Origin: an uncultured Ruminococcus sp.
Lineage (GTDB): Bacteria; Bacillota; Clostridia; Oscillospirales; Acutalibacteraceae
Length of the DNA: 64,000 nt
Direction: 5' to 3'
Assembly (NCBI GenBank): GCA_964588105.1
Contig: CAZPOG010000001.1
Span: forward strand, 53-64,052
This document shows, one piece after another, positions 34,886 to 57,154 of the stretch (position 1 is its first letter; each line of letters opens with the position of its first letter). A program made the position numbers and the translations under genes. The notes below the pieces were generated by a model. That model was given only the letters and a program-made list of their open reading frames with translations, was not told the DNA's origin and searched no databases.

Positions 34886-35846
34886 AAGACCTCTCCTCCT
34901 TTGTCTTGGATTTTTCTTCATCTGCAAGGGCAAGTGAGAGGTTAGAACGTATCTCGTCCGACCTCTCAGCGATCCCGTCGCAGAGTTTTTTCTCCTTGCG
35001 GAGTGTTTTGAGCTTTTCGTTGATTGCTTTGATTTGCTCTTTTGCCTCAGACAGCTCTTTTTCATCTGTTTTTCTTCTGATCTTATTTCGCAGGAGCGTT
35101 CTGTCGGCAATCAGGGTATGGATCTGCGAATCGACCTTTGCTCTGTATGAGAAAAGCTGCTCCAGCGTTGAGATCTTCTCTCTGCCGAGCAGCCTTGTCT
35201 GTGCAGTGATCCTGTCCAGCTTCAGCCAATCCTCACGGAAGATATAGTGAATCTTGGCAGGACTCGTCTGCTTGTAATTCGGAAGATAGCCGAGCTTATA
35301 ACAGTAGTAGAGATACAGACCGTACAGCCCTCCTACTTTCCTGATTTTATCCTCTCTTGTCGGTAGGTTGTAACGGCGAAGAACGATACGCGGTCTCTGA
35401 AACGGCTGTGTTATCATCTTCCGGTAATTCCCGCTCAACCGTTTCATAATGGCGTCGTTTGTATAATCCTCGCCGAGCTTATAAAGACGGATGGGTTTGT
35501 CATATCCTTTCGGGATAACGGTCCAGTATTTCCTGTTCGGATTAAACCGGTATCGGTAACCCATCTGTTCCAGATAGTATTTGAACTCGGATAATCCTCT
35601 GCTTTTTTCAATCGCTTCATTAAGCTGTTCCCTGACGATGCTGTACCAAGTCGTCATACCCTCTTTTTCAAGTTTGTGATAATAATATGAGGTTGGTTTG
35701 ATATACTCCGGATCAGGTTTGTAGTAGATACCATATTCCCGACATACCTCATCAGCGATATGTCGGAATTTGATCCAAGCCTTCTCTTCACCGTGCAAAC
35801 GCTTACCGTCTACAAACGAAATGGAATTGATAACAAAATGACAGTG
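34869..35846 (-). pseudogene. ICE MOBP relaxase, 3' part (from HCHFVINS)
   Basis: Frame reads H-C-H-F-V-I-N-S-I-S-F-V-D-G-K-R up to the junction at 35846. Confidence 0.9.
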
Positions 35847-36245
35847 ATACGTATTTTGTCAAGGGTATTTTCTGCCAAAGTTGTTCTTTCCTTTTCGTAT
35901 AATACGACAAAACCGCCGATAGGTTTTGAAGTGAACCTATCAACGGTTTATTTTTCGTAATGAAATCTATTTTGTTTTCTCTTTTTCAAATCTCTTTACT
36001 ATTTCGTTTGTTGTAGAAAGCTCATATTCTTTTGTAAAAAACTCATCTCTAAAATAACAAATTGTTTTATCAAGGGTATTTGATCCTATAAACAAAACTA
36101 TAAAACTCTGTGCAAAAACAATAGGATTGTACAATAATTAGTTTTCGTATATATGGTTAATAAAGATTATTAATTATATCTTCGACAAGCGTAGTTATTT
36201 TTGCAGATAACTTAAATAGCGAACATATTTTAACTGGCATCTACT

Positions 36246-36761
36246 TTATTCAGTAGTTTTTCTATTATAACTGTCAATAAGATATAGTATGTTAGAAAGC
36301 GTTATAATATCAAGGTTATCTTCACGATCTTTATAATATAATAGAGATCGAAAATCCTCCAGATACTTTTTTTTACTATATATTGCATCTGGAAATTCAA
36401 ATCTAGATATAGGTTTTTCCCCTTTTTTATTTAATTCTTCATTAATTTCATACTGCATAAATGATAGCCCAGCAGATATTGCTAATTCATAATTACTGAA
36501 ATACAATTTTGAATTACTAGCATTATTGCTTTCGATAACTTTCGTTTTTATTACTGAATACATTATTATTGCCGCAACTTTATGAATATCAAGCAGCACA
36601 ACTTCTTTATTCATATATTTTCTTTTTGTTTCACCGTATTTTTCACGAAAGTATTTTAAAAAAGTATCATATTTATTTTTATTAATTATCGAATTATCAG
36701 CGTAATTAGATTGAGCTGATAATATCATTTTTTGCCATAACACTTCTAGTTTCGCAAACAT
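36246..36761 (-). CDS. hypothetical protein
   Basis: 171-aa AT-rich ORF 3 nt downstream of the previous gene. Confidence 0.65.
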   Translation of the reverse strand: MFAKLEVLWQKMILSAQSNYADNSIINKNKYDTFLKYFREKYGETKRKYMNKEVVLLDIHKVAAIIMYSVIKTKVIESNNASNSKLYFSNYELAISAGLSFMQYEINEELNKKGEKPISRFEFPDAIYSKKKYLEDFRSLLYYKDREDNLDIITLSNILYLIDSYNRKTTE

Positions 36762-36764
36762 ATA

Positions 36765-37532
36765 CTAATCACATCCCTTAAAATAATCAATAAACTGTAA
36801 GTCGTGATTATATATCGTATTTAAATCTTTACCGCAATTCATCATCCTAATATTATCAATTTCCTTAATTTCTTTAATTCTATAACTATGTATTCTATTT
36901 TTATAGGATTTTATAATTATAATTAAATTAATGATTATTGCTATTACCAGAATTAGAATTGTAATTATCCACATTACTATATTATAATTTTTATCCATAT
37001 TAATACTTGTGAATAATCCGGCTAACAAAGAGACTACACCAGAGAGAATGCCAAGTAACAATGACATTATACTCATTCCGCTTTTTTTATTAGTTTTTGT
37101 TTCGCTAATAGAAAAACCCTTTTCTTGTACATTTGCTAAATCACTTTCATTATTAAGAGCCTCTAATATCTTATAAATACTATCTTGTTTTATATTATTG
37201 GGAATATACAAGTTTTCTACAAATTCAACTACTAAATCCTCATAAAACATATCTACGGTTTTCATTTCATCAGGAATTATATTATATGTTCTAGCTACTG
37301 ATTTGATTATAACATTAAGTTCTTGCTTAGTAGGCAATCCTGAATTGGCAATATAAGGTCTTAGTATAGTTAATACTTCATTGTTTGCTAAAATAATATT
37401 TCTTTTATAATCATTCTTTTTCTTGCTATCTAAAACTTTATTCGTAATAAAATAAACTATTATTCCACTAATAATACCTCCTACGATACCAATAACCCAT
37501 CCGTTTTGTAAAAAAACAAAAAAATCTTTCAT
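36765..37532 (-). CDS. hypothetical membrane protein (about 3 TM)
   Basis: Hydrophobic helices at the N-terminus and near residues 155-210. Confidence 0.7.
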   Translation of the reverse strand: MKDFFVFLQNGWVIGIVGGIISGIIVYFITNKVLDSKKKNDYKRNIILANNEVLTILRPYIANSGLPTKQELNVIIKSVARTYNIIPDEMKTVDMFYEDLVVEFVENLYIPNNIKQDSIYKILEALNNESDLANVQEKGFSISETKTNKKSGMSIMSLLLGILSGVVSLLAGLFTSINMDKNYNIVMWIITILILVIAIIINLIIIIKSYKNRIHSYRIKEIKEIDNIRMMNCGKDLNTIYNHDLQFIDYFKGCD

Positions 37533-37618
37533 GTTGTATCACCATTTAACATAATTAAGGTACATATTAAATCAAACTAGTAAAATTTTTGCTAATTTAT
37601 CTGTTGAGAAATAATACT

Positions 37619-38380
37619 CTATTCCTTACATTTGTAAACTTTAATAGATTTCGTAGCTGATGCTTTTGTTTCATATTTTTCAGGGAAATTTTCAATAAGT
37701 TTTGTAAGTCGTTCAAAACCAAAAGACCGAACGTCAAAATCAGATTTTACACGTTTTATGTAGAACCCGGCATTACTAATAAAAGCATATCCATCATCAT
37801 CTTGATATGTTTCCCAGGCTAATCGAAGCAATTTGTGTATTTCATCAATCGGATTAATAGGTTGAGTTTCATCGGATTCCTTTCTTATTCTGTCATTGTC
37901 GTCTGATGCGTCCGCATCTTTTGTTTGCACCTTAATTTGCGATTTGTCAATGTTTTCTAACAAAACAAATTCATCACAACTGTTTTTAAAAGCTTCTGGC
38001 GTTTTATTTTCTCCTACTCCAATGACATATACACCAGATTCATGGAGATATATTGCTAATGGAGTATAATCGCTATCACTTGATACAATAACAAATCCAT
38101 CATAAATGCCTTTATGTAATAAATCCATAGCTCCAATAGTTAATGCTATATCCGTAGCATTCTTACCTGTTACATAGTCAAATTGTTGTTCAGGCTTAAT
38201 TGCTAATCTCTTTAATTCTGATTCCCAGTTTTTAAGATTATCCTTTTTCCAATTTGCATAAGCACGTTTAACAACTATGCGACCATGTTTAGATATTTCT
38301 TGAATAACACCTTCCAACTTTGACAACTGAGTATTATCAGCATCTATTAACAAAGCAATATGATCTAAATTGTCCTTCAT
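37619..38380 (-). CDS. NYN (LabA/DUF88) domain + OST-HTH/LOTUS protein
   Basis: LLIDADN, GKNATDI, VSSDSDY, VIGVG; C-terminal FDVRSFGFERLTKL. Confidence 0.9.
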   Translation of the reverse strand: MKDNLDHIALLIDADNTQLSKLEGVIQEISKHGRIVVKRAYANWKKDNLKNWESELKRLAIKPEQQFDYVTGKNATDIALTIGAMDLLHKGIYDGFVIVSSDSDYTPLAIYLHESGVYVIGVGENKTPEAFKNSCDEFVLLENIDKSQIKVQTKDADASDDNDRIRKESDETQPINPIDEIHKLLRLAWETYQDDDGYAFISNAGFYIKRVKSDFDVRSFGFERLTKLIENFPEKYETKASATKSIKVYKCKE

Positions 38381-38407
38381 TTTAATTCCTCTTTTCATAT
38401 ATTAGTT

Positions 38408-39478
38408 TTATATAAATGGAAGATTTGAATAATTTGCAAACTCCTTTTTTAATACTCTCCACTCTTCAATGAGTACTTTCCCATACTCGTCAATACCCAT
38501 AATATCAAAAACGAATTGTATGGCATCGTCATAATCGGTTTCATAATACGCAAAAATGTTCTTCTGTGCAATAATAGCTCCTTTAACTATTTCAATCCAA
38601 TCTTTATCACGTTCTTTACCAAATTGTTTACGTATAACATCCAAAAATAGACTAACTCTAGTGGATGCCGGAGGGTGAGTATAATTTTGTGGTTCTTCTG
38701 TTTTCCAATAATTGTTTTTAATCCCAACTAAATAGAATACACATTGTAACGCACAACCAACTAATCGGTAGATCTGATTCTTATCAAATACAATTATATT
38801 AATCTTTTGGTCGTTTATCAATTCACTTTCTAACACAGACGTAATATGACAAGCCGAGAACTCATCCGCATCAATTTCCATCACCTGAAGAGTCGTGTTA
38901 TCAATTTGTGACATTGTGTTTCCCATTGCAAATGATATAGCAGTTTCTCCATGGCGTTTTCTGTATTCTATATGTCCGCTTAACAGATGTCCAATTTCAT
39001 GAGCAATTATAATTTTCATCGCAATCATTGCGATATAATCTGTAATTATGTTAGTTTCGATAGAATCTGAAATGTAAATTAATGAGCTAATTATTTCCTC
39101 ATCTTTAACACTACGAATATCAAATTTATGAATTGTTTGATATTTAGGTTCTTCTTTCATGAGGATAGTCCGATAAACACAAGATAGAATAGATGCAAAT
39201 CTGTAAATTGATAATACTGTTCCTTCGAGAAAAACAATTTTATTCACTACGCCTTGTGAAAAGCAAAATGCGTCTATCTCTGCATTATAAAGATATTCAA
39301 CATCGCAGTCAATCTTGTGATTTGTTTGAATACATATTTTGTTAAGTAATTCTTTAGTGTATTTTTCGTAATAATCAAAAACAATTACAGGAGTATTTAC
39401 CGACTTAAAGAAACTAAACGGTGTATTACCGACTAATTTATTAAAATAGGTTATATCATCCTCATAATTGGTACTCAT
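38408..39478 (-). CDS. HExxH metallopeptidase, Lit/peptidase U49-like
   Basis: IDAF, AHEIGH...GH, MEIDADEFS, THPPASTR motifs. Confidence 0.7.
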   Translation of the reverse strand: MSTNYEDDITYFNKLVGNTPFSFFKSVNTPVIVFDYYEKYTKELLNKICIQTNHKIDCDVEYLYNAEIDAFCFSQGVVNKIVFLEGTVLSIYRFASILSCVYRTILMKEEPKYQTIHKFDIRSVKDEEIISSLIYISDSIETNIITDYIAMIAMKIIIAHEIGHLLSGHIEYRKRHGETAISFAMGNTMSQIDNTTLQVMEIDADEFSACHITSVLESELINDQKINIIVFDKNQIYRLVGCALQCVFYLVGIKNNYWKTEEPQNYTHPPASTRVSLFLDVIRKQFGKERDKDWIEIVKGAIIAQKNIFAYYETDYDDAIQFVFDIMGIDEYGKVLIEEWRVLKKEFANYSNLPFI

Positions 39479-40055
39479 ATAAATCACCTATTTTTTTAAA
39501 TATGTTTTTATCAGATAAAACGTTAAGAATTCTAGTTATTTGTTTATCTGTGCATGTACATTCTTCATCAATTCTAAACCTACATTTATAATTCTTATTA
39601 CAACACTTACCGTTGTATTTTTCTAACAATTTATCATTAACGTACTTTTCTTTACTACATGCTGATTCTTTAACTATACACTTATGACCTTCTCGTTCGT
39701 TTAGTTTTACAATAACTCGTCCGTTTAATCCGATGGCGTTTACAAATAATTGAGCGAATCCACGAGTTAGTGTTATATCAAGTAGTAAAGCTACAACAAA
39801 AATAGTTGAAAGTTTCAAGTTAATATAAATATTGGTTTGAGGAACCATAAAGTTCATTATCCCTTCTTTACACTCGGGATATACAATAGAAAAATCGATC
39901 TTTTCGTTTTCGTCTAAAAAATCAGTATGGCACTTTATGTATGTTAGTACTTGTTCTGCATCATCCATATTTTCTATACCGTAGTTTGACAATGTATCAT
40001 ATACTTTAGCTTTTGAACCTGAAACCAAAATTCGATTATTAGGGATTTGTTTCAT
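39462..40055 (-). CDS. hypothetical protein with Cys-rich C-terminus
   Basis: GAGG RBS; overlaps the peptidase start; C-terminal CCNKNYKC...ECTC. Confidence 0.65.
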   Translation of the reverse strand: MKQIPNNRILVSGSKAKVYDTLSNYGIENMDDAEQVLTYIKCHTDFLDENEKIDFSIVYPECKEGIMNFMVPQTNIYINLKLSTIFVVALLLDITLTRGFAQLFVNAIGLNGRVIVKLNEREGHKCIVKESACSKEKYVNDKLLEKYNGKCCNKNYKCRFRIDEECTCTDKQITRILNVLSDKNIFKKIGDLYEYQL

Positions 40056-40260
40056 ATATTTTACCTCTTTTTTCACATTATATATAAATTATATCATATA
40101 AAAACGAATAATAAAATGTATTAAACCACAAAATCATAAAGCTACCAATTGTTGAAAGTATCTAAAAAAACACATACAATTTTGTGAACAAAGAATTTAA
40201 TTTATTATATAAAAACTCGCCCTAAATCTTTAGGACGAGATCCTTATAATGTGATTATTA

Positions 40261-41328
40261 TTATATTTTCTTTGCTTTTATAACAAAAGCCGTAGGCAAC
40301 ATCAATGCTTTCTTACCGAAATCCGAATCAGCAGCAATCGCCTTTTCTCTGTCAGTTTCTTCCACAAACTGTTCGATAGCAAATCCGTTATTTGCTAAAG
40401 TATTGATATATGTACTTAACATGCGATTTGAAAGGATTATTTGTTTATCGCTCATATCCGCACGATACCATTCCTCATTGAAATAGGAATTGCTGAAAAC
40501 AAGTTGTCCGTTTTCGATTGACACACACTTGTGGATTGGGTGCGACCAGCCGAAAACAAATATCCCATTATCTTTCAGATATGAGTTGATAAGTTTGAAT
40601 GTAATATCTAAATCTGTACTCCAACCTATTCCGTAAACAGAATAAACAATGTCAAAATAATCTGTCGGCAAACCACATTCCTTTTCCATAGGAGAGCAAA
40701 TAAGTTGAACGGATAAACCTTTGGATTCAAGATATTCGTTTGTTCTTGCAATTTGATTAGCGGAAATATCTATACCCCATAAATCTGTTGCTCCGCATTT
40801 AGCGGCATATTCCAACGAATGACCGTTACCACAACCTATTTCAAGAACTCGTTTTCCCGACAAATCCCCAAGTAAATTAAGCTTATCCTCCGACGGCAAA
40901 AAGCCACCCCAACTCGGCAGAGCAGTTGTACCTAAAAAACCACTTCCAATAGTATTCCAAAACTCAATATTTGTTCGGTGAGCAATTTTTGAATCTATAT
41001 CAACATTCTCAGATTGTCCTAATACCTTACCACCAACAATGTTCTTTTTCGTTGATGTTGCTTCTTTAATCAGTTTCATCATATTTTCCTCAGCTTTCTG
41101 TTTATAGTCAGCGTCGGTCAGTTTCTCGCCCGAAAACAACTCATTAAGATTGATTTTCAGAATATCGCAAATTGGTAGCATAAGAGATATATCCGGCATT
41201 CCATTGCCGCATTCCCATTTACTGACGGATTTATCACTAATACCAAGTAGCTCGGCAAACTCACGTTGAGTTAATCCTTGCTCTTTCCTCATTTCAGCAA
41301 TGAATCTTCCGATTTTTGCCTGATCCAT
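40261..41328 (-). CDS. XRE HTH fused to class I SAM methyltransferase
   Basis: MDQAKIG..RKEQGLTQ..SVSKWECG; VLEIGCGNG. Confidence 0.88.
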   Translation of the reverse strand: MDQAKIGRFIAEMRKEQGLTQREFAELLGISDKSVSKWECGNGMPDISLMLPICDILKINLNELFSGEKLTDADYKQKAEENMMKLIKEATSTKKNIVGGKVLGQSENVDIDSKIAHRTNIEFWNTIGSGFLGTTALPSWGGFLPSEDKLNLLGDLSGKRVLEIGCGNGHSLEYAAKCGATDLWGIDISANQIARTNEYLESKGLSVQLICSPMEKECGLPTDYFDIVYSVYGIGWSTDLDITFKLINSYLKDNGIFVFGWSHPIHKCVSIENGQLVFSNSYFNEEWYRADMSDKQIILSNRMLSTYINTLANNGFAIEQFVEETDREKAIAADSDFGKKALMLPTAFVIKAKKI

Positions 41329-41403
41329 ACCGACACCGCCTTTCTTGATGATATTATATGATAAAATTGTTGTATATCACACCTACTAATAGTAGAGTAA
41401 ATG

Positions 41404-41922
41404 CTAATTCCAATGATTAAAATATGAAGATTCTATTTTCAAAGCGTATTCTTGCTTATTTATGTTTCTATGTATTATTATCATAAATCCTGCTTCATAA
41501 CAGTAATGATAACTATAATCGACAAGGTTTTTTAATCTTTCTTTATCCGAGTCCAAATTGAATCTTTTATAGTCCTTTTTCATTTCAATACATATCAAAT
41601 TGCTAAAGCCATAGTTTTCATCGTAACCTCTCTTATGAACAATTAAGTCGACGACGATTTTTTTATAGTTAAGTATTTTGGGGTTATTCTCAATTCCCTC
41701 GCTGCCACGATTGTATTCGACATCAACCATATAATCTGCAAATCCAAAATTTTTTAACTCATTTTCCAGATAGCGAGCAAAACGAGCACAAATACATCTT
41801 TCACTTAAATCTCTGGATATTAAATATTCTTCTGCTTCATTGAATGTTGAGATTGCTCGTTGAACTAATTCTTTGCATTTCAATTGTCTCTCATTTATAT
41901 CTTGCATTTCATCCTCCGGCAT
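41404..41922 (-). CDS. hypothetical protein, possible PD-(D/E)XK fold
   Basis: SER.....A, VDVEYNR, VDLIVH, IEMKK pattern. Confidence 0.55.
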   Translation of the reverse strand: MPEDEMQDINERQLKCKELVQRAISTFNEAEEYLISRDLSERCICARFARYLENELKNFGFADYMVDVEYNRGSEGIENNPKILNYKKIVVDLIVHKRGYDENYGFSNLICIEMKKDYKRFNLDSDKERLKNLVDYSYHYCYEAGFMIIIHRNINKQEYALKIESSYFNHWN

Positions 41923-41924
41923 AA

Positions 41925-42695
41925 TTACTTGTTTTTCGCCAAATACAAGTCAATCGTATCATATATATTGATTTTGCCGCCAACTTCATCAATCGCTTGT
42001 TTCATTTCCTGCTCAAACGCAAGTCTTTTCTGTTCCGGCAAAGCGTTATGATCAGAATAAGTTCTGATTAGATTCACATATTCCTCACTTGCCAGCGTTC
42101 TTGTGCGCCGATATATTTTTGATTGTATATCAGTGAATCCGAATTGAGCAAGCTCGTTGATTATGACTTGACATTTGGATTCATCAAACTGTATCGGCGT
42201 CTTATCATTTGGTCGGTATTTTTGATAAACCGCTATACTTGCACGATTTGTTTCATCGTTTACATTGCTGACAAACGGGTGATTCCAAAACAAAGCGAGA
42301 ACCCCGTTAGGCTTTATTAATGTTTTGATTTTTGCATAGCCGCTGTCTTTTGGTATCCAGTGAAAAGCAGTTGCGCTGAATATCATATCATAACCGTTTT
42401 CGGGTAAATCTGCTTTGAGAAAATCCGAAATAATGATGTTGAATTTCTCGAATGCAGAAAACTTATGTTTGCAGTACTTAGCTAATCTGTCACCTAATTC
42501 AACAGCGGTTAGGTTGCAACCCTTTTGAAGAAACGGTAAGGTTGCTTGTCCTGTGCCGATACCGATTTCAAGAACAATACTGCCGGAACAAAGGTTTGCA
42601 TAATCAAAAATGTCCTCAAAGAGCTCACTCGGATAATCAGGGCGAGTTTTATCATAGTTGTATTCGTCTTTATTAAAGGTAGTCCGTAAGTCCAT
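41925..42695 (-). CDS. class I SAM methyltransferase
   Basis: RPDYP, VLEIGIGTG, FSATAFHW. Confidence 0.9.
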   Translation of the reverse strand: MDLRTTFNKDEYNYDKTRPDYPSELFEDIFDYANLCSGSIVLEIGIGTGQATLPFLQKGCNLTAVELGDRLAKYCKHKFSAFEKFNIIISDFLKADLPENGYDMIFSATAFHWIPKDSGYAKIKTLIKPNGVLALFWNHPFVSNVNDETNRASIAVYQKYRPNDKTPIQFDESKCQVIINELAQFGFTDIQSKIYRRTRTLASEEYVNLIRTYSDHNALPEQKRLAFEQEMKQAIDEVGGKINIYDTIDLYLAKNK

Positions 42696-42697
42696 CG

Positions 42698-43357
42698 TTA
42701 TCCCTTTAGCTTTCTCATTGCTTTTGCGTGAATCCTATCGTGCCAGATAAATCTGCGAAAGAGTTTACGCAGCGTCCATTGTTTGTTATAGCTTCCGTCA
42801 TAGATAATATTGTCAAGATAATGTGGCGTTTTCTCTAATGCCTCAAACGCTCTTTTCCTGCAACCAAATATATCTCCGTCATTATCAGCTTTAATTCCTA
42901 TTTCACCGAAATAATAATCGTTGACATTCTTAGTGTGTTCATACATTTCATTTGCAGTTCTCGGAACAGCGCCGTAAAAGGTTTCCCTTTGTGGCAAATT
43001 CGAATAGTCTTTATTGGGTATGGAATGATAGAGTTGAAGGAAATCGTGAGCCGATTTTAAGCACAATTCCTTTAGTATTTCATATTCATTTTGAGTAAGC
43101 GATTTTTTCTCGCTCTCAAAAAGCACATCTGTATCAGCGTCACGGATATTTAATTTACAACTATAATCTTCAATTATTTGTATTACAATATCTTTGGGCA
43201 AATTGATGTTTGCCCACTCGCAATAATCATTGATTTCATCAGATACTTTTGAAATTGCAATATCAAGGTTTTCTCCACGAGTAAATGCTCCAACAAAATT
43301 TTCAATATACAACAGCATATCGTTGCCGTTATGTTCCCATATACAATTAATAACCAC
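42698..43357 (-). CDS. hypothetical protein (HicB-like N-terminus, DinB-like C-terminus)
   Basis: GAFTRGENL.IA; WTLRKLFRRFIWHDRIH. Confidence 0.6.
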   Translation of the reverse strand: MVINCIWEHNGNDMLLYIENFVGAFTRGENLDIAISKVSDEINDYCEWANINLPKDIVIQIIEDYSCKLNIRDADTDVLFESEKKSLTQNEYEILKELCLKSAHDFLQLYHSIPNKDYSNLPQRETFYGAVPRTANEMYEHTKNVNDYYFGEIGIKADNDGDIFGCRKRAFEALEKTPHYLDNIIYDGSYNKQWTLRKLFRRFIWHDRIHAKAMRKLKG

Positions 43358-43361
43358 TTCT

Positions 43362-43844: not shown

Positions 43845-43956
43845 TTTTCAATTCATCTTTCAAATAATTTATACTTCAATGATACCATAAAAGCAGAATA
43901 TTAGCAACAAAAAATGCCGCCAAGCAGGAATTATCCTACTTGACGGCGGTATCAAT

Positions 43957-46291: not shown

Positions 46292-46293
46292 TC

Positions 46294-46330: not shown

Positions 46331-46344
46331 GCAGCGTTAATTGA

Positions 46345-48463
<2,119 letters not shown>

Positions 48464-48611
48464 TGAAAATTGAAATAGATTTGTGTATAATAAAAGTCAG
48501 TCAGTTCCTTGATCAGTAACCCCTAAACTGAAACATTGATAAAAACACCTTAGCTGCGCAAAAATGCTCTCCAAAAGCCGCTTGAACAGTGGCTTTCAGA
48601 GAGCAAAAGCG

Positions 48612-48968: not shown

Positions 48969-49109
48969 AACGTTTCCTCCTTCTTTATTGATAGAAGTAA
49001 TCTGAAAAAAGGAAAACAGATTACCTCTCCATATATAGGAGAAATTCGGTACGGTTTGCGGAACTGTTTTTGAAAAAAATTTAAGAAATTTTGCGGGAGG
49101 TGATTTGCG

Positions 49110-49826
49110 GTGGATGATTACGAGGATATTTTGTCGGAACAGGAAGAAGAACAGCTCGCCAAAGCGTTAGCCGACGAACATCAGGCTGAATTAGAAGTAC
49201 AGCTCGAACAGGACGAGCAGCCGCCGCAGATTGACGAGCCGCCCGAAACCAAAAAGCTGAAAAGAGATTTACAGCGTGAAGCGCTCGACAGATTGGAGAA
49301 CGCCGCAAGGACAACCGCTGATTTTCAGAATGTGGTATCTTGGTGGAATCGTCTTGACAGTAACCGTGAGCGCAGGGAGCGTTATCACGAAGTCAGCCGG
49401 AGCGGTTTGGATATTCCGCTTGATTACGGTGCCGCGCTTGACGGCGAGGTTATTCCTTACGATGTCAATGATGTGCTGATAAAACAAATCCGCAAGGGCG
49501 ATTATATTGACGCAATCTTTCATTGTCCGTTTGAGATAAACGAATTGGTGACTGACGGCGAACTTTCAAAGATATTGAACAATTTATCCGATGATCACAA
49601 GGAAATTATCTTTAACAATATCGTGCGAGGGACAAGTACAAAAGCTCTCGGCAAAATCAGAGAGCAATCCGACAGAAATATCCGTAAGGTCAGAGCGACC
49701 GCCTTGAAGAAGATAAATAATGCATTACTGAAAGTGTTATTGAGCCGCAAAGAAAAAGGGTTTCCTCTCACGATGGAAGAAAAGCAGTTAATAGAAAAAG
49801 CCCTTGACGGTAGCAAGGGCAGTTAG
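49110..49826 (+). CDS. sigma-70 region 4-like regulator
   Basis: GGAGG RBS; C-terminal LSDDHKEI...STKALG...SDRNIRK HTH. Confidence 0.65.
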   Translation: MDDYEDILSEQEEEQLAKALADEHQAELEVQLEQDEQPPQIDEPPETKKLKRDLQREALDRLENAARTTADFQNVVSWWNRLDSNRERRERYHEVSRSGLDIPLDYGAALDGEVIPYDVNDVLIKQIRKGDYIDAIFHCPFEINELVTDGELSKILNNLSDDHKEIIFNNIVRGTSTKALGKIREQSDRNIRKVRATALKKINNALLKVLLSRKEKGFPLTMEEKQLIEKALDGSKGS

Positions 49827-49832
49827 TATAAT
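49804..49832 (+). promoter_or_regulatory. sigma70 promoter
   Basis: TTGACG-17-TATAAT. Confidence 0.75.
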
Positions 49833-49865
49833 GGTAATATATTATTCTGATTTCAGATTACACTG

Positions 49866-50798
49866 GTGATAGATATGAGCTTTCAATTTGAACATTCTAA
49901 TTCAACTTGGGTAAGGTACAGCGAATACAAATGGAAACAAGCTGAGAACGGCAAGCTGTATTTGACCGCTTGCTCCGACGCTCAGCCTACAATATACGAT
50001 CCGCTGAAAGAATATCAGCAGTTAGTCTTGGACGCTCTGTATATCGGGCGCTTGGGTATGAAGCAGGAGCATGACGATGAAGAAATACAAGCCGAAATAA
50101 AAGCCTTTGCGGAAAAGTATGGGCTGTTCGGATTGATGACAGCGTTACCGACCACACCTTCCTTTATGGACTATGAAGCGGTGTATCTGCCGAAGAATCG
50201 TTTTATCAAAAAGGAAACGATGTCAACCGAGAAATACCTTGCTTTATTTTTCCCATTTGACAAACCTGATGTAGTAAAACGCAGTGTGGAATCGTTATGG
50301 AATATAGAAGGCGACAATATGATGATGGCGCTCGCTATGACAATGAGCGACAGACCGATGGCGGTCAATATGAGCTTTCAGCGTCAGTATGCCGAGAGCT
50401 ACGAGTGGATGAAGCAGGTGTTTACCGATTGGGCGTTTAATGCCACAACAGTGTTTCTGTATTACAATGACTATAATAAGCTGGACGATGACTACAAACA
50501 GCTTATGCGGCAGAGTATCCGTGCGTTTGACGGTAACGCTCCGAGCTATCACATTGAGCTGCTTGAACAGCCTACGCTTGTATGGGATTTCCATTCGCTC
50601 TTGCTCGGCATTCAGATGATGTTGTCCTTTATGCTGACCGATGAACACAACCCTCTCCGATTCTGCAAGCAATGTATGAAGCCGTTTATTGCTTCCAGAC
50701 CAAGCGCTGTCTTTTGCAGCCCTCGATGCAAGAATCAGTATAACGTGTATAAGAACAGGGCGAAAAACAAAATGACTGATGAAGATGAAACGAATTAA
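49866..50798 (+). CDS. hypothetical protein with CGNR-like C-terminal Zn finger
   Basis: FCKQCMKPF...FCSPRCKN. Confidence 0.75.
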   Translation: MIDMSFQFEHSNSTWVRYSEYKWKQAENGKLYLTACSDAQPTIYDPLKEYQQLVLDALYIGRLGMKQEHDDEEIQAEIKAFAEKYGLFGLMTALPTTPSFMDYEAVYLPKNRFIKKETMSTEKYLALFFPFDKPDVVKRSVESLWNIEGDNMMMALAMTMSDRPMAVNMSFQRQYAESYEWMKQVFTDWAFNATTVFLYYNDYNKLDDDYKQLMRQSIRAFDGNAPSYHIELLEQPTLVWDFHSLLLGIQMMLSFMLTDEHNPLRFCKQCMKPFIASRPSAVFCSPRCKNQYNVYKNRAKNKMTDEDETN

Positions 50799-50816
50799 TT
50801 GATAGGGTGATAGATT

Positions 50817-51836
50817 ATGGCAAATGAGATTATCATAAACAACAATAATTCAAAGAGCACATATAATTCCATACGGCGCAGCATTATTTCTGCACAGCAA
50901 AAGGTTTATACTGCGGTCAATTCCGCTATGGTTTTCGCTTATTGGGAAATTGGCGAGCAAATATATAAAGCCTGCGGGGAAAACGAAAGAGCAGAGTATG
51001 GCAAGAATCTTTTGAATTATCTTTCCGACAAGCTGACTGCGGAATTCGGAAAAGGATACAGTGTTCAGGGACTTCGCAATATGCGGCAGTTTTACTGTAC
51101 ATATCCAATTCGCTCCACACTGTGTAGCGAATTGAGCTGGTCGCACTATCGTGTTCTGATGAGAATTCCGGATAAAACCACCCGTGAGTTTTACACGGAA
51201 GAATGCGCTAAATCTATGTGGAGTGTACGGCAGCTTGAAAGACAGATACATACGATGTATTATCAAAGACTGCTTGCGAGCCGTGATAAAGAAAGCGTTG
51301 CGGCAGAGATTCAGACAACAGAGCCTAAGCCCGAATATGAAAAAGCAATCAAGGATCCATATGTAATGGAATTCCTTCAAATCAAGCCCGATACTCATGT
51401 TTATGAAAGTGAAATTGAGCAGGCTTTGCTTAATCACTTGCAGGAGTTTTTACTTGAACTCGGACGAGGGTTTTCATTTGTTGCAAGACAAAAGCGATTT
51501 ACACTTGACGGGCAAGATTTCTTTATCGACCTTGTCTTTTATAACTATATTCTGAAATGCTTTGTCCTTTTCGATCTGAAAACAGGCACATTAACCCATC
51601 AGGATTTGGGACAAATGCAGATGTACGTCAACTACTACACAAGAGAATTGATGAACGAGGGCGACAATCCTCCGATCGGTATTGTTCTCTGTGCCGATAA
51701 GAGTGATGCCGTAGTCAAATACACTTTGCCGGAGGATAACAATCAAATTTTTGCTTCCAAGTACTTTACATATCTTCCCACGGAGGAAGAGTTTAAGAAA
51801 GAGCTTAATCTTGACGATTATGCAAAACTGAATTAA
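50817..51836 (+). CDS. YhcG/DUF1016 PD-(D/E)XK nuclease-domain protein
   Basis: YWEIG, LSWSHY, KDPY..FL, LLELGRGF, IDL.FY, DLK, GQM..Y. Confidence 0.93.
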   Translation: MANEIIINNNNSKSTYNSIRRSIISAQQKVYTAVNSAMVFAYWEIGEQIYKACGENERAEYGKNLLNYLSDKLTAEFGKGYSVQGLRNMRQFYCTYPIRSTLCSELSWSHYRVLMRIPDKTTREFYTEECAKSMWSVRQLERQIHTMYYQRLLASRDKESVAAEIQTTEPKPEYEKAIKDPYVMEFLQIKPDTHVYESEIEQALLNHLQEFLLELGRGFSFVARQKRFTLDGQDFFIDLVFYNYILKCFVLFDLKTGTLTHQDLGQMQMYVNYYTRELMNEGDNPPIGIVLCADKSDAVVKYTLPEDNNQIFASKYFTYLPTEEEFKKELNLDDYAKLN

Positions 51837-51857
51837 ATTTATCTTTGATATTATAAG

Positions 51858-51889
51858 CTCCTGCAAGAACAACAACTTGCAGGAGTTTT
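51858..51889 (+). terminator. intrinsic terminator
   Basis: CTCCTGCAAG / CTTGCAGGAG plus TTTT. Confidence 0.7.
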
Positions 51890-52072
51890 CACTTTTATGA
51901 GTTATATATTACATAATTGAAATTGATATTACGGTGTTCACAAAATTGTATATGTTTTTTCGTGCTTTTTCGACAAGTTTTAGCTTTAAAATTCTATATT
52001 AATAAGCTGTCAAATTATAAAAGAAAATGATATAATAATAATAAATACTTGAAAATATTTATGAGGCATTAA

Positions 52073-52828
52073 ATGAATAATGTTATAGATTATTTCAGCA
52101 AACGTGCATCTGTATATAATAGTAGTGATTGGGTTAACGACAAAGATATTCTCCATACTATTTTAAAGTGTTTGAATTCAACAGAAGCTAGTTTTTTAAA
52201 TATATTAGATTTGGGAGCAGGTACTGGTGCAGTATCAAATTATTTACTATATAATCTCTTATCAGATACAAGAATAGTGGCTTTAGATGTATGTGCGGAA
52301 ATGTTGCAAAAGAATTGTGAGCAAAGAATTCTAAAAATTTTATCGTCGGCAGAAAAAATGCCGTTTATTGATAATAGCTTCGATGTTATTGTGTCTAGAC
52401 AATGTATGCATTACATTGACGATCTGAATAAAGCTATCGATGAAATAAAACGAGTATTAAAATGTGGAGGAATATTCGTCTTATCACAGTTTGTTCCTCT
52501 TGAAACTGAGACAAAGAATTTTTGGATAGATATGATGAAGGTTAGGCAACCATTGCGAAAGAATTTTTATTCAGAAAAAGATTGGATTGAGTTGTTCATA
52601 CAACATGGATTTAGTGTTAATTCAGTTGAAAGATATTCCAAACCATATTCAATTAAAAAATGGGCTCAAACATATAATGTAGAACAAAATGTGGAGATAT
52701 CACCGTATCAGACTATATTAAAAAACGCTCCCATAGAATATATTAAGGAATACGGAGTTAGAGAAAAAAATAACGATATTTTGATTAATAGTTTCGGAGT
52801 TACAATATCTTTTCAAAAAGATAAATAG
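52073..52828 (+). CDS. class I SAM methyltransferase
   Basis: ILDLGAGTG, ALD, AEKMPF.D.SFD. Confidence 0.9.
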   Translation: MNNVIDYFSKRASVYNSSDWVNDKDILHTILKCLNSTEASFLNILDLGAGTGAVSNYLLYNLLSDTRIVALDVCAEMLQKNCEQRILKILSSAEKMPFIDNSFDVIVSRQCMHYIDDLNKAIDEIKRVLKCGGIFVLSQFVPLETETKNFWIDMMKVRQPLRKNFYSEKDWIELFIQHGFSVNSVERYSKPYSIKKWAQTYNVEQNVEISPYQTILKNAPIEYIKEYGVREKNNDILINSFGVTISFQKDK

Positions 52829-52859
52829 TATTGAAAAATTATTGAATTAAGGTGGTATT

Positions 52860-53672
52860 TTGTTATACAAAATTCTTAAAAACATTATCTCTTCTATTAC
52901 AGTAATTGTTGCCATCGGATATTTGGTATATAGCATAATTGTTAATGCAAATTCTCTTTATGAATATATGATATTGTCATTATTGATTCTAATTGCAACA
53001 ACATTTATTATAGAAGGATTAGATGAAAAACGAAAATGGAAAAGCATAGATAATGACATAGTGACTAGAATTTCCAGCATATCTGATTGCCAAATATATA
53101 CTTATAATAATACAAAAGAATGGGTGCAGAAAATAATAGAACTAACGAAGGAAGGTTCACATTCCTTTGATTCCGCTGCACTTGATAGTGCAACAAGAAG
53201 CAAAGCTAAATCACACTATTCTAGCATTTGGAATTATTTAAATATGTGCAGTAAAGAAAAAAGAATTACTTTTAGGCATATTACGCGTGTTAGAAATAAT
53301 AACTTCTTAAATCTGTTATATCGGATTCATTCTGGGAATTCAAAAAATAATAGTTACTTTGCTTATTATGAATTGCCCAATAGCTTTTCGTTTCCAACTT
53401 TTGGAGTAATTGACGGGAGATATATTGCAACTAGAAGTCCATACCAACAAGGAGTTACTCCATGTTATATGATAATTGATAATACAAAGATATCAAAATT
53501 TTTTATCGATTATTTTGAAGACCTTTGGAATAGTTCAAATAAACTTGAAAAGGTTTCTCAATTAAAAGACATATACGAAAAATTTGAATCTGGATATACA
53601 GAAGAAGAAAAAAAGAACTGTCTTGAATTAATCAAAAAAATTGAAAAAGAAGGCATCGTTGATGATATTTGA
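52860..53672 (+). CDS. 2TM membrane protein with PLD/TrmB-like soluble domain (tentative)
   Basis: Two N-terminal TM helices; F.VID ... F..YFEDLW.SS ending. Confidence 0.55.
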   Translation: MLYKILKNIISSITVIVAIGYLVYSIIVNANSLYEYMILSLLILIATTFIIEGLDEKRKWKSIDNDIVTRISSISDCQIYTYNNTKEWVQKIIELTKEGSHSFDSAALDSATRSKAKSHYSSIWNYLNMCSKEKRITFRHITRVRNNNFLNLLYRIHSGNSKNNSYFAYYELPNSFSFPTFGVIDGRYIATRSPYQQGVTPCYMIIDNTKISKFFIDYFEDLWNSSNKLEKVSQLKDIYEKFESGYTEEEKKNCLELIKKIEKEGIVDDI

Positions 53673-54414
53673 TATTTGTGAGTTGAATAAAATATCAGAT
53701 GATACGAATATCTGGGGAGGAAAAGCTGTTTCTATTTGCAAGTTGATGAATAACGGCTTTCGCGTTCCAAAAGGTATCGTTCTCTCAACAAAAGTATTTG
53801 ATAAATATCAAAGCAAAACGCTTATCATTAATTCATTGGAAGAAGAATTGAATAGAATTTGTAAAGACTTTTTTAATTGTAATAATTGTGGATTAATTAT
53901 ACGATCATCTGCAAACATTGAAAGCGGTAAAGAGTACTCATGTTGTGGAATATTTGATACATATGTATATAATCCATCATTTTCAATAACTCATTATGTA
54001 AAAAAAGTCTGGGATTCAGCTTATTCAAATTTTGCTATCGATTATTGTAACAAGATTAATTATCCAAGTTGTAAAATTAAAATGGGAGTAATAATTCAAG
54101 AAATTTATATAGGTGATTATAATGCAGTAATTCAAACACACGATATAGTTAATAACAAGAATCGTATTGTTTTAGAATATAAAAGTGGTGATATTGATAG
54201 CGTTGTAAATGGATTTGTAGATGCAAATACCGTATTTATTGATTATGAACAAAGTAATAGTAAAAGTTTTTCGGATGCGGTTTTGAAAAAGAGAATAATA
54301 TGCCAATTAATCAACGATTGTTATAAAGCTGAAAAAGTTTTCAACTCTCATGTTGAACTTGAAGCACAGATTCATAATAACAATATTTTTTATGTACAAG
54401 CTAGAGAAATATAA
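53662..54414 (+). CDS. PEP/pyruvate-binding (dikinase ATP-grasp) domain protein
   Basis: GGKA..L..GF.VP.G, IIRSSA..E, G.F.T, MGVIIQE. Confidence 0.85.
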   Translation: MIFDICELNKISDDTNIWGGKAVSICKLMNNGFRVPKGIVLSTKVFDKYQSKTLIINSLEEELNRICKDFFNCNNCGLIIRSSANIESGKEYSCCGIFDTYVYNPSFSITHYVKKVWDSAYSNFAIDYCNKINYPSCKIKMGVIIQEIYIGDYNAVIQTHDIVNNKNRIVLEYKSGDIDSVVNGFVDANTVFIDYEQSNSKSFSDAVLKKRIICQLINDCYKAEKVFNSHVELEAQIHNNNIFYVQAREI

Positions 54415-54428
54415 TAGGAAGTGAGTAA

Positions 54429-56150
54429 ATGAAAATCAAAGGATTGTGTGTTAGTTGTGGTACAGCAAAAGGACCGGCTTACATTATAAAAAGCGAGAAC
54501 AAGCAAAGAATAAGTGATATATCCTTATTGCCAAATACAATTCTGGTAATGAAATCATTAGATAGAAGTATTCTAGTTAACCTAAATAAGAATGTTATAG
54601 GTGTTGTAGCAGAACACGGAAACATAGGAAGCCATGGTTCAGGGATACTTCGACAGTTAGGTATACCTTGCGTTCTCAGAATAAACGGAGCAACTGAATT
54701 ACTAAAAAACGGCGAGTTAGTAGAAATCTGTGATGCTGAAAACTGTATTATTTGTTTTGATCAAAAAGGAAATAACGATCAGCAAGAGCTAAGCAAAAAT
54801 ACAGACTTCGAGTACCAATCAATTTCTAAACCACAGTTTAGCATAGATGAGATTCGTCCAGTTGAAAAGTGGATAAAACCAAGGCCTGGAAGAGTGTATC
54901 AAAAGCTACGTTATGATATTATTAGTGATGTATATGTGTCTAGCGTGGAATACATTTATAAAATGCCTTCAGCATTAACAAGGCAAGATAGCAATGGCGT
55001 AATTGAAGTATTCGGCACACCTAGTCTACCAGATTTGTGTAGCTTTGTTTTATGTAATCCTTATTGGCTAATAGAAAAAGCTAAGGAACGCTCCACTGAG
55101 TTTAATAGAATAAAAAATGACATGGCAAATCTTTTGAGATATGACGATTGTAATAGTGTTAATGATATTTGCTATGTTTTTAATGAATCAGTTAGACTAT
55201 ATAAATCAATTTTTAAATACTTATTTCTGTCACAAGTTACATCCGATGAAATGCTTGATATCTATCTTGATTTTTTGAATTTAATCACAGGAAAAGAAAT
55301 GTCAAAGGATGTGTTTAATCTTAGGTCAGATTATGTTGAAAAGAGCTTGTCATCAGGACATGATCCAGGCGGATTTCAAAAATGGGGCGAGAATGTAACA
55401 CCACATATATGGGATGGTGAAATTGATTACACCCCTTTCCCTATAGATAATAGCATCATAGATAAAATAGAAAACTCAGAAGCAGATAATCAGAGATTAA
55501 TGAGAGACTATTCATCCTTTAGAGTTGTTATTCCACTTATCTATCAACTGTCAGAAGAGTTTTTTTATATGTCTAAGAGTATAAACTCTTTCCTAAACTG
55601 GAGTATAGTAAATCTTCACAGATTATTATCTCAGAAGAAACTATTAAATTCCTCACTAAATGATTTTTATAATATACCTCTGAATGAGGTGTTTAAATAC
55701 ATAAAACTATTAAAAGGAGATTATAGTATGGACAACAAATTTATGGAAGCTTTTCATCCTGATGAAACTTTAGTAAAAGATTTTCAACATTGGGTTGTTC
55801 TTGTTAGGGAGAATCAATTAACTCTAGGAAACTGTTATTTTGTATTGAAACGTGAGATTCCGTTTTTTGGTCAAATGAATTCTGAAGAAAGTGCTGAATT
55901 AAGTTGCGTAATGAAATGGTATGAAGAAAAGTGCAGATTATTATTTGGTGCCGAGAAGTTTAATTATGTTGCTGCAATGATGAGGGATAATTTCGTACAC
56001 TTTCATGCTTTTCCAAGATATTCAAAGCCTGTATCAAGATACGGTATTGAGTGGAAAGATGATAGATGGCCCAGATTACTTCAATTTGGTCCAAGTGTAT
56101 GTGAACCAAAGTATTATCAACTGATAAAAGAAGATTTAAAAGAAAACTAA
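54429..56150 (+). CDS. PEP-utiliser phospho-His swivel domain + helical domain + C-terminal HIT-like domain
   Basis: G..KG, GNIGSHGSGILRQLGIPCV; C-terminal QLTLG ... MMRDNFVHFHAFPRY. Confidence 0.8.
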   Translation: MKIKGLCVSCGTAKGPAYIIKSENKQRISDISLLPNTILVMKSLDRSILVNLNKNVIGVVAEHGNIGSHGSGILRQLGIPCVLRINGATELLKNGELVEICDAENCIICFDQKGNNDQQELSKNTDFEYQSISKPQFSIDEIRPVEKWIKPRPGRVYQKLRYDIISDVYVSSVEYIYKMPSALTRQDSNGVIEVFGTPSLPDLCSFVLCNPYWLIEKAKERSTEFNRIKNDMANLLRYDDCNSVNDICYVFNESVRLYKSIFKYLFLSQVTSDEMLDIYLDFLNLITGKEMSKDVFNLRSDYVEKSLSSGHDPGGFQKWGENVTPHIWDGEIDYTPFPIDNSIIDKIENSEADNQRLMRDYSSFRVVIPLIYQLSEEFFYMSKSINSFLNWSIVNLHRLLSQKKLLNSSLNDFYNIPLNEVFKYIKLLKGDYSMDNKFMEAFHPDETLVKDFQHWVVLVRENQLTLGNCYFVLKREIPFFGQMNSEESAELSCVMKWYEEKCRLLFGAEKFNYVAAMMRDNFVHFHAFPRYSKPVSRYGIEWKDDRWPRLLQFGPSVCEPKYYQLIKEDLKEN

Positions 56151-56193
56151 TGCCACGAAATAAATAATATCAAAAAAGTTTTAAACTATATTT

Positions 56194-56229
56194 GCCCGCT
56201 GTCAGCGATCATGCTGATAGCGGGCTTTC
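56194..56229. terminator. hairpin between convergent genes
   Basis: GCCCGCTGTCAGC / GCTGATAGCGGGC. Confidence 0.6.
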
Positions 56230-56230
56230 C

Positions 56231-56608
56231 TTATACATATACAATTTCATTCAATACGATTTCTTCGGCGCGGTTGCGGATATTATTCATACGCTGTACC
56301 CACGCCATTTGGTCGGCAGCTTTGAGTGCTTCGGTAACTCCTTCCTGATTAGCCATAGCTTTTACAAGGCTTTCCATTCGCTCGCTGCATTCTTCATCAA
56401 TTTCCGCTAAATGTTCGGACAGCTTGCAAGATGTAAGCAAGTTGGTATAGAGAATTGGACGATGCTTTTTGAGATAACGCCTGCGGCGCTGTCCCCATAC
56501 GCCGATGTTATACTCCGGCTGTTTCGGCATTTTCAGATTTGGGAGCAAGTAGTCTCCCTTTTGGATGTAAGTACCGCCAAGCTGTTCAAAAATAGTTTTC
56601 TGTTTCAT
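56231..56608 (-). CDS. tnpV: TnpV family protein
   Basis: FEQLGGTY...GDY.LPNL, IG.WG..R..YLK, EGVTE.LKA.DQMAWV.RMN. Confidence 0.92.
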   Translation of the reverse strand: MKQKTIFEQLGGTYIQKGDYLLPNLKMPKQPEYNIGVWGQRRRRYLKKHRPILYTNLLTSCKLSEHLAEIDEECSERMESLVKAMANQEGVTEALKAADQMAWVQRMNNIRNRAEEIVLNEIVYV

Positions 56609-56750
56609 AATAGGCTCCTTTCGTGATAATGGTTTCAACAGTTTGGATGAATATTAAACTCCTTTCCTACAACTGCATTTCAATTCACCACAAATGAGCC
56701 GCAGTCATATGTACTAAGGTAGTAGAAACTACCCTTTACATAATAGCTCT

Positions 56751-57154
56751 TGCAGGTGATGCGTGTTCAAATGGGTAGTAACAACGACCTGAAACCGCTC
56801 GCCCCACACACGGCGGGCAAATTCCATTCCTACCTTCTGAGCAAGCTCAGGAGATATCTTTTGTTCTTTGAAGCTCAGATAACCGTGATACGCCTGTATA
56901 CCATCAGTCTTACCATAGAGCAGCTTAATATTGATAAACTGCTCTCGTGCAAAAGACGCATCACAGTTGATTCCATCAACAAACAGCGTTTTTTCTGTTT
57001 TTTCTTCGTCCTTTGCATAAGCAAGAACATCGGCAAGAGCCTGATATTGTTCTTCGCTATACTGTTGTTTCCTTTTTGTCTTTGCCGGATTCATAGCATA
57101 GTTAATTATTCGGTCAAAAGAATAATTAACTGTCCAAATTTTACTTACTGCCAT
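56751..57154 (-). pseudogene. ICE MOBP relaxase, 5' part (to VVVTTHLNTHHL)
   Basis: MAVSKIW, YAMNP.KT, GINC, AYHGY.SF, VVVTTH; breaks at the TG junction. Confidence 0.9.

Follow-up and report, generated by a model that had tools for sequence, protein, structure and literature searches.

Why should a 20,904-bp mobile element lie exactly within the catalytic motif of another element's relaxase gene, and is that position a rule or an accident? The locus that raises the question lies in a 64,000-nt stretch of contig CAZPOG010000001.1 (assembly GCA_964588105.1) from an uncultured Ruminococcus sp.; the whole stretch is called the window here, positions refer to it unless another sequence is named, and the 72-kb contig that contains it is called C1. 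By gene content, window positions 35847-56750 form one integrative mobilizable element (IME) of the clostridial class that combines TnpV, TnpW, a large serine recombinase and a MOBQ relaxase (Table 1). In the explanation that we favor, with a probability of roughly 85%, its recombinase belongs to a clade that uses DNA encoding the catalytic histidines of MOBP relaxases as its attachment site, attB, and excision would restore the relaxase gene.

The two junctions of the element have a single dinucleotide in common. On the plus strand the left junction reads ...AAAATGACAG-TG(35845-46)-ATACGTATTTTGTC... and the right junction ...AATAGCTCT-TG(56751-52)-CAGGTGATGCG..., TG being the sole sequence shared by both, and homology to other copies of the element begins exactly at position 56750, where loci L004 (position 5586) and L007 (position 5860) align. 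When the flanks were joined by script, removing 35847-56750 plus one TG copy, the minus strand read ACG CAT CAC CTG CAC TGT CAT TTT within a single open frame of 459 aa, rebuilding the invariant relaxase motif TTHLNTxHL-HCH-FVINS. The PF03432 Relaxase profile is covered in full by the rejoined protein (positions 1-132, E = 3e-35); in the unjoined genome it is cut at profile positions 90-92 into two matches 21 kb apart (C1:56805-57071 and C1:35779-35904). The rejoined protein aligns gap-free at the junction with intact homologues of 456-461 aa, the best of which is 78% identical. VVTTHLNTxHLHCH is invariant in the aligned intact relaxases, as are H128, H133, H135, and H137 (8 sequences), and the split falls between L134 and H135, the duplicated dinucleotide being the CA of the H135 codon. 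In its present state the N-terminal frame reads 7 codons into the element before a stop at 56729, leaving a 134-aa fragment without HxH and a promoterless C-terminal part. Given that the fragment lacks HxH, the host element would be unable to nick its own origin of transfer (oriT) while the IME is in place.

This position is shared by most other copies of the element. An initial annotation of the window, made from the sequence alone, had proposed a survey for recombinase homologues at HxH codons of MOBP relaxases, and the survey drew on recombinase homologues at 94-96% identity together with a scan of Joint Genome Institute (JGI) metagenome contigs with the exact 29-nt TnpV end. Of 17 copies with a readable flank that were scored, 14 are inserted at the CA of the codon for the first His in HxH, 8 of them forward and 6 reverse (CA and TG, respectively, on the element-sense strand). 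Their target relaxases belong to at least 8 lineages, between which identity is 25-52%. The forward copies are those of the window, L001/L002, L096, L097, L095, L098, L099, and G001, the complete genome of Ruminococcus sp. JE7B6, in which the element occupies about 812.7-832.7 kb of NZ_CP162391.1; the reverse copies are L004/L005 with L086, L007, L090, L092, L094, and L100. With a slash marking the insertion point, the forward targets include ..TTHLNTHHL/HCHFVINS in the window, ..TTHLNTDHL/ in L095, ..ATHLDTQTL/ in L098, ..ATHINTKAV/ in L099, and ..ATHVNTNAI/HNHLIMNSVNY in JE7B6, where both junctions were read. Both junctions were also read in the reverse copy L004/L005 with L086 (..TTHLNTANL/HNHLIMNSVSF), and L007 has /HNHFVVNS. 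The initial annotation had further described a precise insertion at a shared TG that yields one continuous relaxase on joining, and both this description and the anticipated targeting of HxH codons are borne out.

The copies are very unlikely to descend from one inherited insertion. L004 (reverse) and L095 (forward) interrupt relaxases whose N-terminal parts are 92% identical, in opposite orientations, and therefore represent independent insertion events. An empty site is provided by L101, in which an integrative and conjugative element (ICE) 93% identical in nucleotide sequence to that of L001 is uninterrupted, the window's two flanks being contiguous at ...CATCACTTA-CA-TTGTCAT.... Among 81 sampled genomes of the same family, in which about 55 relaxase genes were matched, only the window's PF03432 gene is split at profile positions 90-92, so most potential sites are empty. 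Independent copies at a homologous position in different target genes mark the behavior as site specific and integrase-like. The sites read show that the clade has as its attB the DNA encoding (V)TTH-x-NT-xx-L/H-x-H-xVxN of MOBP (PF03432) relaxases, with a 2-bp crossover on the CA of the first HxH His codon, neither base of which can vary without loss of the His.

A tree of 83 recombinases places the group with all relaxase-targeting copies in one clade of 9 rows (Shimodaira-Hasegawa-like approximate likelihood ratio test 100, stem length 0.33), and 6 of the 6 members with a scored target are at the relaxase site, an ambiguous copy discussed below (L011) included. The clade is nested among relatives of 60-71% identity, most of which, where the flank is readable, lie inside another element's large serine recombinase gene after residue 32 (..GxSNSIxN/Q..), with the crossover on the CA of the Gln codon. 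Both orientations occur here too: forward in L013, L014, L016, L018-L022, L025, L026, L033-L035, L037, L042, and L043, and reverse in L046, L055, L056, L059, L060, and L079. We did not meet this serine recombinase target in the literature consulted. Judged from these positions, the family makes a habit of inserting at conserved enzyme motifs in other mobile elements, and the relaxase-targeting clade has switched from integrase genes to relaxase genes. The bases under the central dinucleotide are in every case ones that the target protein must keep. In serine integrases, as work on Bxb1 and phiC31 established, the central dinucleotide alone sets polarity, and the pairing of CA and TG attP versions with the two orientations fits that rule.

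The ends of the element, read in element sense, rebuild AATACCCTTGACAAAATACGTAT-CA-AGAGCTATTATGTAAAGGGTAG, in which a pair of 16-nt inverted repeats, set 5 nt to either side of the CA, agree at 14 of 16 positions. This arrangement matches in sequence that of a serine-integrase attP, symmetric about the crossover dinucleotide. Eleven JGI metagenome contigs, as well as L001, L004, and L007, have an identical 29-nt TnpV end, and about 110 nt are conserved at the P end, including a terminator-like hairpin that a simple terminator scan missed because its loop is too long for the scan and that was found by direct folding. On an excised circle, joining of the arms would create a near-consensus promoter directed toward tnpV, TTGACA-17 nt-TATTAT, with equal spacing in the window, JE7B6, and L004; a weaker match, TGAACA-18-TATTAT, is all that the relaxase side offers in the integrated state. 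A short hairpin, GGTAG-TTTCTA-CTACC, lies immediately inside the P' arm (about 56718-56735, minus strand); in other family members it is GGTGG...CCACC, with the pairing kept, and it may be part of the recombinase site or a tnpV leader structure. An internal second copy of the P-arm core (AATACCCTTGATAAAAC) lies at 36063-36078, some 210 bp in from the P end; L086 and L011 lack this copy, which may be a vestige of an earlier end left by cargo exchange.

Table 1. Features of the inserted element, the split relaxase gene, and the adjoining conjugation module (window positions)
Feature	Position	Strand	Basis or remark
Crossover dinucleotide TG (CA on relaxase-sense strand)	35845..35846		P-end junction, attL-like; first two bases of His135 codon in rejoined relaxase
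Crossover dinucleotide TG, second copy	56751..56752		TnpV-end junction, attR-like
N-terminal part of split MOBP (PF03432) relaxase, residues 1-134, ending ...VVTTHLNTHHL	56753..57154	minus	Profile matches and joined frame
C-terminal part of split relaxase, His135 (HCHFVINS...) to stop codon	34869..35844	minus	Profile matches and alignment
P arm of predicted attP, AATACCCTTGACAAAATACGTAT	35847..35869	minus	16-nt repeat TACCCTTGACAAAATA; TTGACA at 35857-35862
P' arm of predicted attP, AGAGCTATTATGTAAAGGGTAG	56729..56750	minus	TATTAT at 56740-56745
Terminator-like 16-bp hairpin followed by UUUUG, in conserved P end	35910..35949	minus	-26.8 kcal/mol, z = -5.9; 0 of 200 shuffles fold as well
IME, 20,904 bp	35847..56750	minus	Order in element sense: TnpV end, cargo slot 1, backbone, cargo slot 2, P end
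TnpV (PF14198), first gene inside TnpV end; likely start ATG at 56608	56231..56638	minus	E = 1e-49; TnpV is 125 aa in L001
Cargo slot 1, GC about 30%: methyltransferase, 270-aa unknown, 257-aa unknown, PEP-utiliser-domain protein	51837..56194	plus
Backbone remainder: Cys_rich_VLP (48612-48968, minus); two conserved unknowns (49110-49826 and 49866-50798, plus); YhcG/DUF1016 PD-(D/E)XK nuclease (50817-51836, plus)	48612..51836
TnpW-like small protein, 70 aa, directly upstream of recombinase	48251..48463	minus	Open reading frame call; PF14202 in L001/L004 equivalents
Large serine recombinase, 634 aa (Resolvase, Recombinase, Zn_ribbon_recom, DUF4368)	46345..48249	minus	PF00239, PF07508, PF13408, PF14287; catalytic motif YERLS18RDD
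DUF3847-like small protein, 71 aa, between recombinase and oriT	46076..46291	minus	Open reading frame call; PF12958 in L001/L004 equivalents
Predicted oriT nick-region core TAAGTGCGCCCT	46011..46022	plus	Single exact match in window; 0.09 expected even at one mismatch
MobA/MobL (MOBQ) relaxase, 565 aa	43957..45654	minus	PF03389, E = 4e-87; N-terminus MAIYHLEAKVISRS...SAY, motif HDTDGHNPHAH
Cargo slot 2, GC about 30%: NYN/OST-HTH protein, HExxH protein, HTH-methyltransferase, PD-Lambda-3_A-like protein, methyltransferase, Peptidase_C15-like protein, unknowns	35960..43950	minus
Host conjugation genes downstream of split relaxase: DUF3801, ArdC-like, VirD4 (31159-32979), TrbC-like (weak match), VirB6/TrbL_2-like (29891-30727), PrgI, VirB4 (27185-29518), sortase-like, CHAP hydrolase	24552..35110	minus	All open frames
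NikA-like relaxosome accessory gene, overlapping split-relaxase start	57145..57681	minus

What does the element bring with it, and what does it interrupt? The IME carries its own MOBQ relaxase and a 12-nt match, TAAGTGCGCCCT, to the published MOBQ oriT consensus (PMC3832669, PMC10333310). The match falls in a 420-bp non-coding stretch of the element, and 55 of 88 fetched loci have one copy of it and no more, in the same position and strand; it is accordingly annotated as a predicted MOBQ, or RSF1010-type, oriT core. Among the open reading frames (ORFs) of the insert that were searched against Pfam, none matched VirB4, VirD4, or other type IV secretion system (T4SS) families, 52860-53672 and 53641-54414 having been searched with PADLOC only. 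The recombinase gene lies mid-element, about 10 kb from either end, and the ORF closest to the right end (54429-56150) encodes the PEP-utiliser protein, not a recombinase.

The interrupted gene belongs to an element whose gene content includes a complete T4SS with a coupling protein and a relaxase, the last being split. The metagenome-assembled genome (MAG) is 2.44 Mb in 319 contigs and 98.9% complete. In it, VirD4, VirB4, and the TrbL_2/VirB6-like protein of the host element are open frames of 606, 777, and 278 aa, and besides those on C1 no second VirB4/VirD4 set was found in the MAG. Three other PF03432 relaxases in the MAG are about 33% identical to the split one, adjoin serine recombinases, and are on contigs with no VirB4 or VirD4 match. 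Within the MAG, no element with VirB4 and VirD4 was found other than the one whose relaxase the IME of the window interrupts. The initial annotation was right that the insert has its own MOBQ relaxase, oriT, and serine recombinase and that virD4, virB4, and virB6 are intact as open frames; one correction concerns the recombinase, which lies in the middle of the element and not at an end. At 3349-5148 of L089, a locus from a second assembly that is 99.97% identical to window 24869-36306 and has an identical P-end junction, VirD4 is called as two ORFs (391 and 201 aa) in place of the single 606-aa frame of the window.

Some targets are found in a different setting. In JE7B6 and in L004/L086, members of the same clade lie in the relaxase gene of a small MOBP IME (NikA-relaxase-recombinase); the flanks examined around these copies contain no T4SS genes, and no VirB4 was detected when the complete JE7B6 genome was searched, a weak negative. 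Since these targets are in small IMEs, the element is directed at the relaxase motif and not at a helper element as such, and the "helper" framing of the initial annotation does not hold as a general rule.

Could the position of the element nonetheless be fortuitous? Tn4451-type recombinases are described with several target sites, and L001 has the same arrangement in a related ICE, as might be expected if a TnpX-like transposase of low specificity had inserted at a TG or if a single ancient insertion had been inherited vertically with the ICE. Against both stand the 14 of 17 copies that share one codon in target relaxases of only 25-52% identity, compared with 94-96% for the recombinases, the occurrence of both orientations even in relaxases that are 92% identical, the empty site in an ICE that is 93% identical, and the uniqueness of the split at profile positions 90-92 in the 81-genome sample with its approximately 55 relaxase genes. 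The site survey led us to reject chance or a single inherited insertion as highly improbable. It is extremely improbable that the junctions are chimeric products of assembly or binning: the MAG is in 319 contigs and the window has a mosaic GC content (33%, 47%, and 30%, the genome being at 49%), but the same P-end junction is present in the separate assembly represented by L089, the same kind of junction occurs in the complete isolate genome of JE7B6, the joined flanks form a perfect ORF, and the ends form a symmetric attP.

The remaining alternatives concern what the insertion does. The IME could be a dedicated parasite that knocks out the ICE relaxase and keeps the mating channel, with excision as the on-switch of the ICE; the interruption indeed affects the relaxase and leaves the frames of the T4SS and the coupling protein open, the IME comes with a relaxase and an oriT of its own, no other T4SS was found in the MAG, and Tn6103, which carries three such IMEs, shows no detectable transfer. 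The monopoly over the channel that the initial annotation suggested is, however, internally inconsistent, because independent transfer of the IME needs excision and excision restores the relaxase gene, so that knock-out and transfer cannot coincide. The clade also enters small-IME relaxases with no T4SS genes in the flanks examined (JE7B6 and L004), the near-equal orientations (8 and 6) make a fixed transcriptional link to the host operon unnecessary, and the T4SS genes downstream may be expressed less because of the terminator-like P-end hairpin, to the detriment of the IME as well; we regard the parasite model as quite improbable. It is also unlikely that the IME stays integrated and replaces the lost relaxase in cis, its MobA/MobL protein nicking the IME oriT so that the composite moves via the host T4SS. 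An intact MOBQ relaxase and a conserved oriT core within an otherwise open conjugation module would suit such cis-mobilization, and ICESp2905 transfers despite IMEs in snf2 and maff2 (PMC5357655); but no transfer was seen for Tn6103 with its nested IMEs, some members of the clade occupy IME relaxases with no T4SS to drive, and the MOBQ relaxase would have to be compatible with VirD4.

Several observations weigh against the favored explanation, that of an IME whose recombinase clade uses the catalytic-His DNA as attB and whose excision restores the relaxase. A near-identical empty site for the window's own element was not found, the best intact relaxase in the protein collection being the 78% identical homologue, and a degenerate pattern for the attP joint of the circle had 0 matches in JGI metagenome contigs. 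Two of the 17 scored copies are exceptions, L091 being in a serine recombinase gene and L093 at an unknown site. In L011 (9288-11678), the recombinase of which is about 95% identical, the P end abuts CA-CTGTCACATCGTGTTAAAT (HCHIVLN), which is relaxase-like over 21 nt only; we first counted this copy as a relaxase target and then downgraded it to ambiguous, the flank beyond 21 nt being unrelated to any relaxase, and it would be either a deletion remnant or a look-alike secondary site. Together, L091, L093, and L011 indicate that site specificity is high, not absolute. C1 shows neither an integrase for the host element nor element ends, so the host element could be an ICE or a plasmid, and the compatibility of the MOBQ relaxosome with the host T4SS is assumed. 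ParA-, ParB-, and initiator-like genes are present at the right end of C1, by reading of the sequences and not by Pfam.

On the favored explanation, conservative excision would rebuild the relaxase gene base for base, and the excised circle, with its own MobA/MobL protein and RSF1010-type oriT core, could be mobilized through a T4SS. A catalytic motif used as attB would offer a landing site wherever a MOBP element exists, at no cost to the host cell, and we infer that disabling the carrier or a rival element is a consequence and not necessarily a selected function. Tentatively, the clade may be described as having a "catalytic-codon attB": its recombinases would read the quasi-palindromic DNA of the His motif and cross over on the unchangeable CA, the wider family doing likewise on the CA of the Gln codon. 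If this site choice were selected beyond safe landing, the element would act as a reversible switch that silences the DNA-processing enzyme of any MOBP element entered, helper ICE and rival IME alike, in effect a competition between elements for the mating pore, with orientation freely reversible via the CA and TG attP variants. Read-through from the ICE mob operon into tnpV was considered as an obligatory trigger of excision and set aside, 6 of the 14 copies being in the opposite orientation.

The GC mosaic of the window has its counterpart in gene content: the conjugation module is about 47%, and the two cargo slots of the IME are the GC-poor parts of the element (Table 1). Relatives share the backbone at 88-92% nucleotide identity and have differing cargo in the same two slots. 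L001 carries HD-CE plus SLATT in slot 1 and a two-component system with an LmuB-like gene set in slot 2, slot 1 of L012 is empty, and slot 2 of L004 has other genes. Because relatives swap cargo on a common backbone, we interpret the mosaic as cargo exchange and not as two nested elements. PADLOC gave a single match in the cargo, PD-Lambda-3_A-like (41404-41922, minus strand; E = 2e-12), and as the NYN/OST-HTH and HExxH proteins are its neighbors, the cargo may be a defense module.

Other features of the window lie outside the IME. Positions 1-24000, with a GC content of about 33%, look like a defense-rich cargo region: Thoeris-like ThsA-Macro and ThsB-TIR genes are found at 20024-21368, and a 1349-aa protein with a weak NACHT match (4787-8836) is encoded beside a 991-aa unknown. 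An AMP-binding enzyme gene (21990-23897, minus strand) appears as two adjacent ORFs of 265 and 360 aa, covering profile positions 12-107 and 168-384, and is probably frameshifted or otherwise interrupted. Two further TnpV homologues without the family end motif are present on the same contig, 47% and 50% identical (window about 17819-18091, plus strand, and C1 65992-66330, outside the window), which suggests further nested or decayed mobilizable elements in the host element. No Rfam family was matched in the window.

Nested "matryoshka" elements are common in gut and rumen Clostridia, and their landing rules and effects on carriers are largely untested. The present copies supply a sharply defined recombinase clade, a natural set of attB sites of about 90 bp over several relaxase families, an attP, and natural CA/TG polarity variants, and one copy is in a cultured isolate, Ruminococcus sp. 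JE7B6. With a cultured copy and a natural site set, target recognition by DUF4368 recombinases, the rule that the dinucleotide sets orientation, and the re-arming of a conjugative element by excision become directly testable. The locus is also a warning for annotation: split relaxase genes in such genomes may often be reversible interruptions and not decay.

How does this element compare with known systems? Serine-recombinase IMEs nested in ICE genes have been described, namely Tn6104, Tn6105, and Tn6106 in the CTn5-like Tn6103 of Clostridioides difficile R20291 and streptococcal IMEs in traG/virD4, maff2, and snf2 of Tn5252-type ICEs; Tn6104 excises, leaving a 2-bp repeat in both circle and repaired target (PMC3158075, PMC5357655, PMC5704250). 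Coluzzi et al. hypothesized that IME excision repairs the ICE gene for traG, maff2, and snf2 (PMC5357655). The Tn6104 group, the streptococcal IMEs, and the window element have in common a large serine recombinase, TnpV, a MobA/MobL relaxase, a 2-bp repeat, accessory cargo, and site-specific insertion in a conserved ICE conjugation gene, and the excision-repair hypothesis applies equally to all of them. Their reported targets are traG, maff2, snf2, and rumA, together with Tn6103 ORF 1776, annotated as an SSB-like conjugal transfer protein, whereas the window element targets the catalytic His motif of a relaxase. It differs further in having the recombinase mid-element and not terminal, in its two cargo slots, and in the use of IME relaxases as additional targets.

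Tn4451/Tn4453, from Clostridium perfringens and from C. difficile, share with the window element TnpV, TnpW, a DUF4368-type large serine recombinase, a 2-bp crossover, and the need for a circular intermediate. The joint of the Tn4451 circle reportedly forms a promoter, as the title of a paper by Lyras and Rood from 2000 has it; the predicted joint TTGACA-17 nt-TATTAT of the window element recalls that promoter but would face tnpV and not the recombinase. Tn4451 is about 6 kb, has a different mobilization protein (TnpZ), and is described with several target sites.

The Faecalibacterium MOBQ2 IMEs resemble the window element in having a PF03389 relaxase beside a DUF3847 gene and often PF14198 (TnpV), and they are frequent "matryoshka" guests in Tn1549-family ICEs (PMC12084326); the targets named for them are traG, maff2, lysS, and tRNA genes, and the main text of that source, supplements aside, does not mention a relaxase target. 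IMEs in the oriT nic site of Tn916- and ICESt3-type ICEs likewise hit a DNA-processing function and bring their own relaxase, but they use a tyrosine integrase, occupy oriT DNA and not relaxase coding sequence, and carry Rep_trans-type relaxases (PMC7563843).

A likeness in target exists with the group II introns Ll.LtrB (in ltrB) and Ef.PcfG (in pcfG), which also land in the catalytic histidine triad of IncP-type relaxases, the comparison being made at the level of the motif; the rationale offered for the introns is that a conserved catalytic motif presents many unoccupied sites in orthologous relaxase genes, and their insertion lowers relaxase expression and conjugation (PMC7947834, PMC6003770). 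The introns are retroelements that are spliced out as RNA, whereas the window's interruption is a DNA element of 21 kb that brings a relaxase and an oriT of its own and would be removed by site-specific recombination. Our literature search on insertions in relaxase genes returned group II introns and deletions only, and no IME with a relaxase target. Two unlike kinds of element, an IME clade and group II introns, have converged on the same relaxase motif. The class of nested serine-recombinase IMEs is already known; what appears to be new, from the sites compared here, is the target specificity of this clade together with the retargeting evident at the level of its family.

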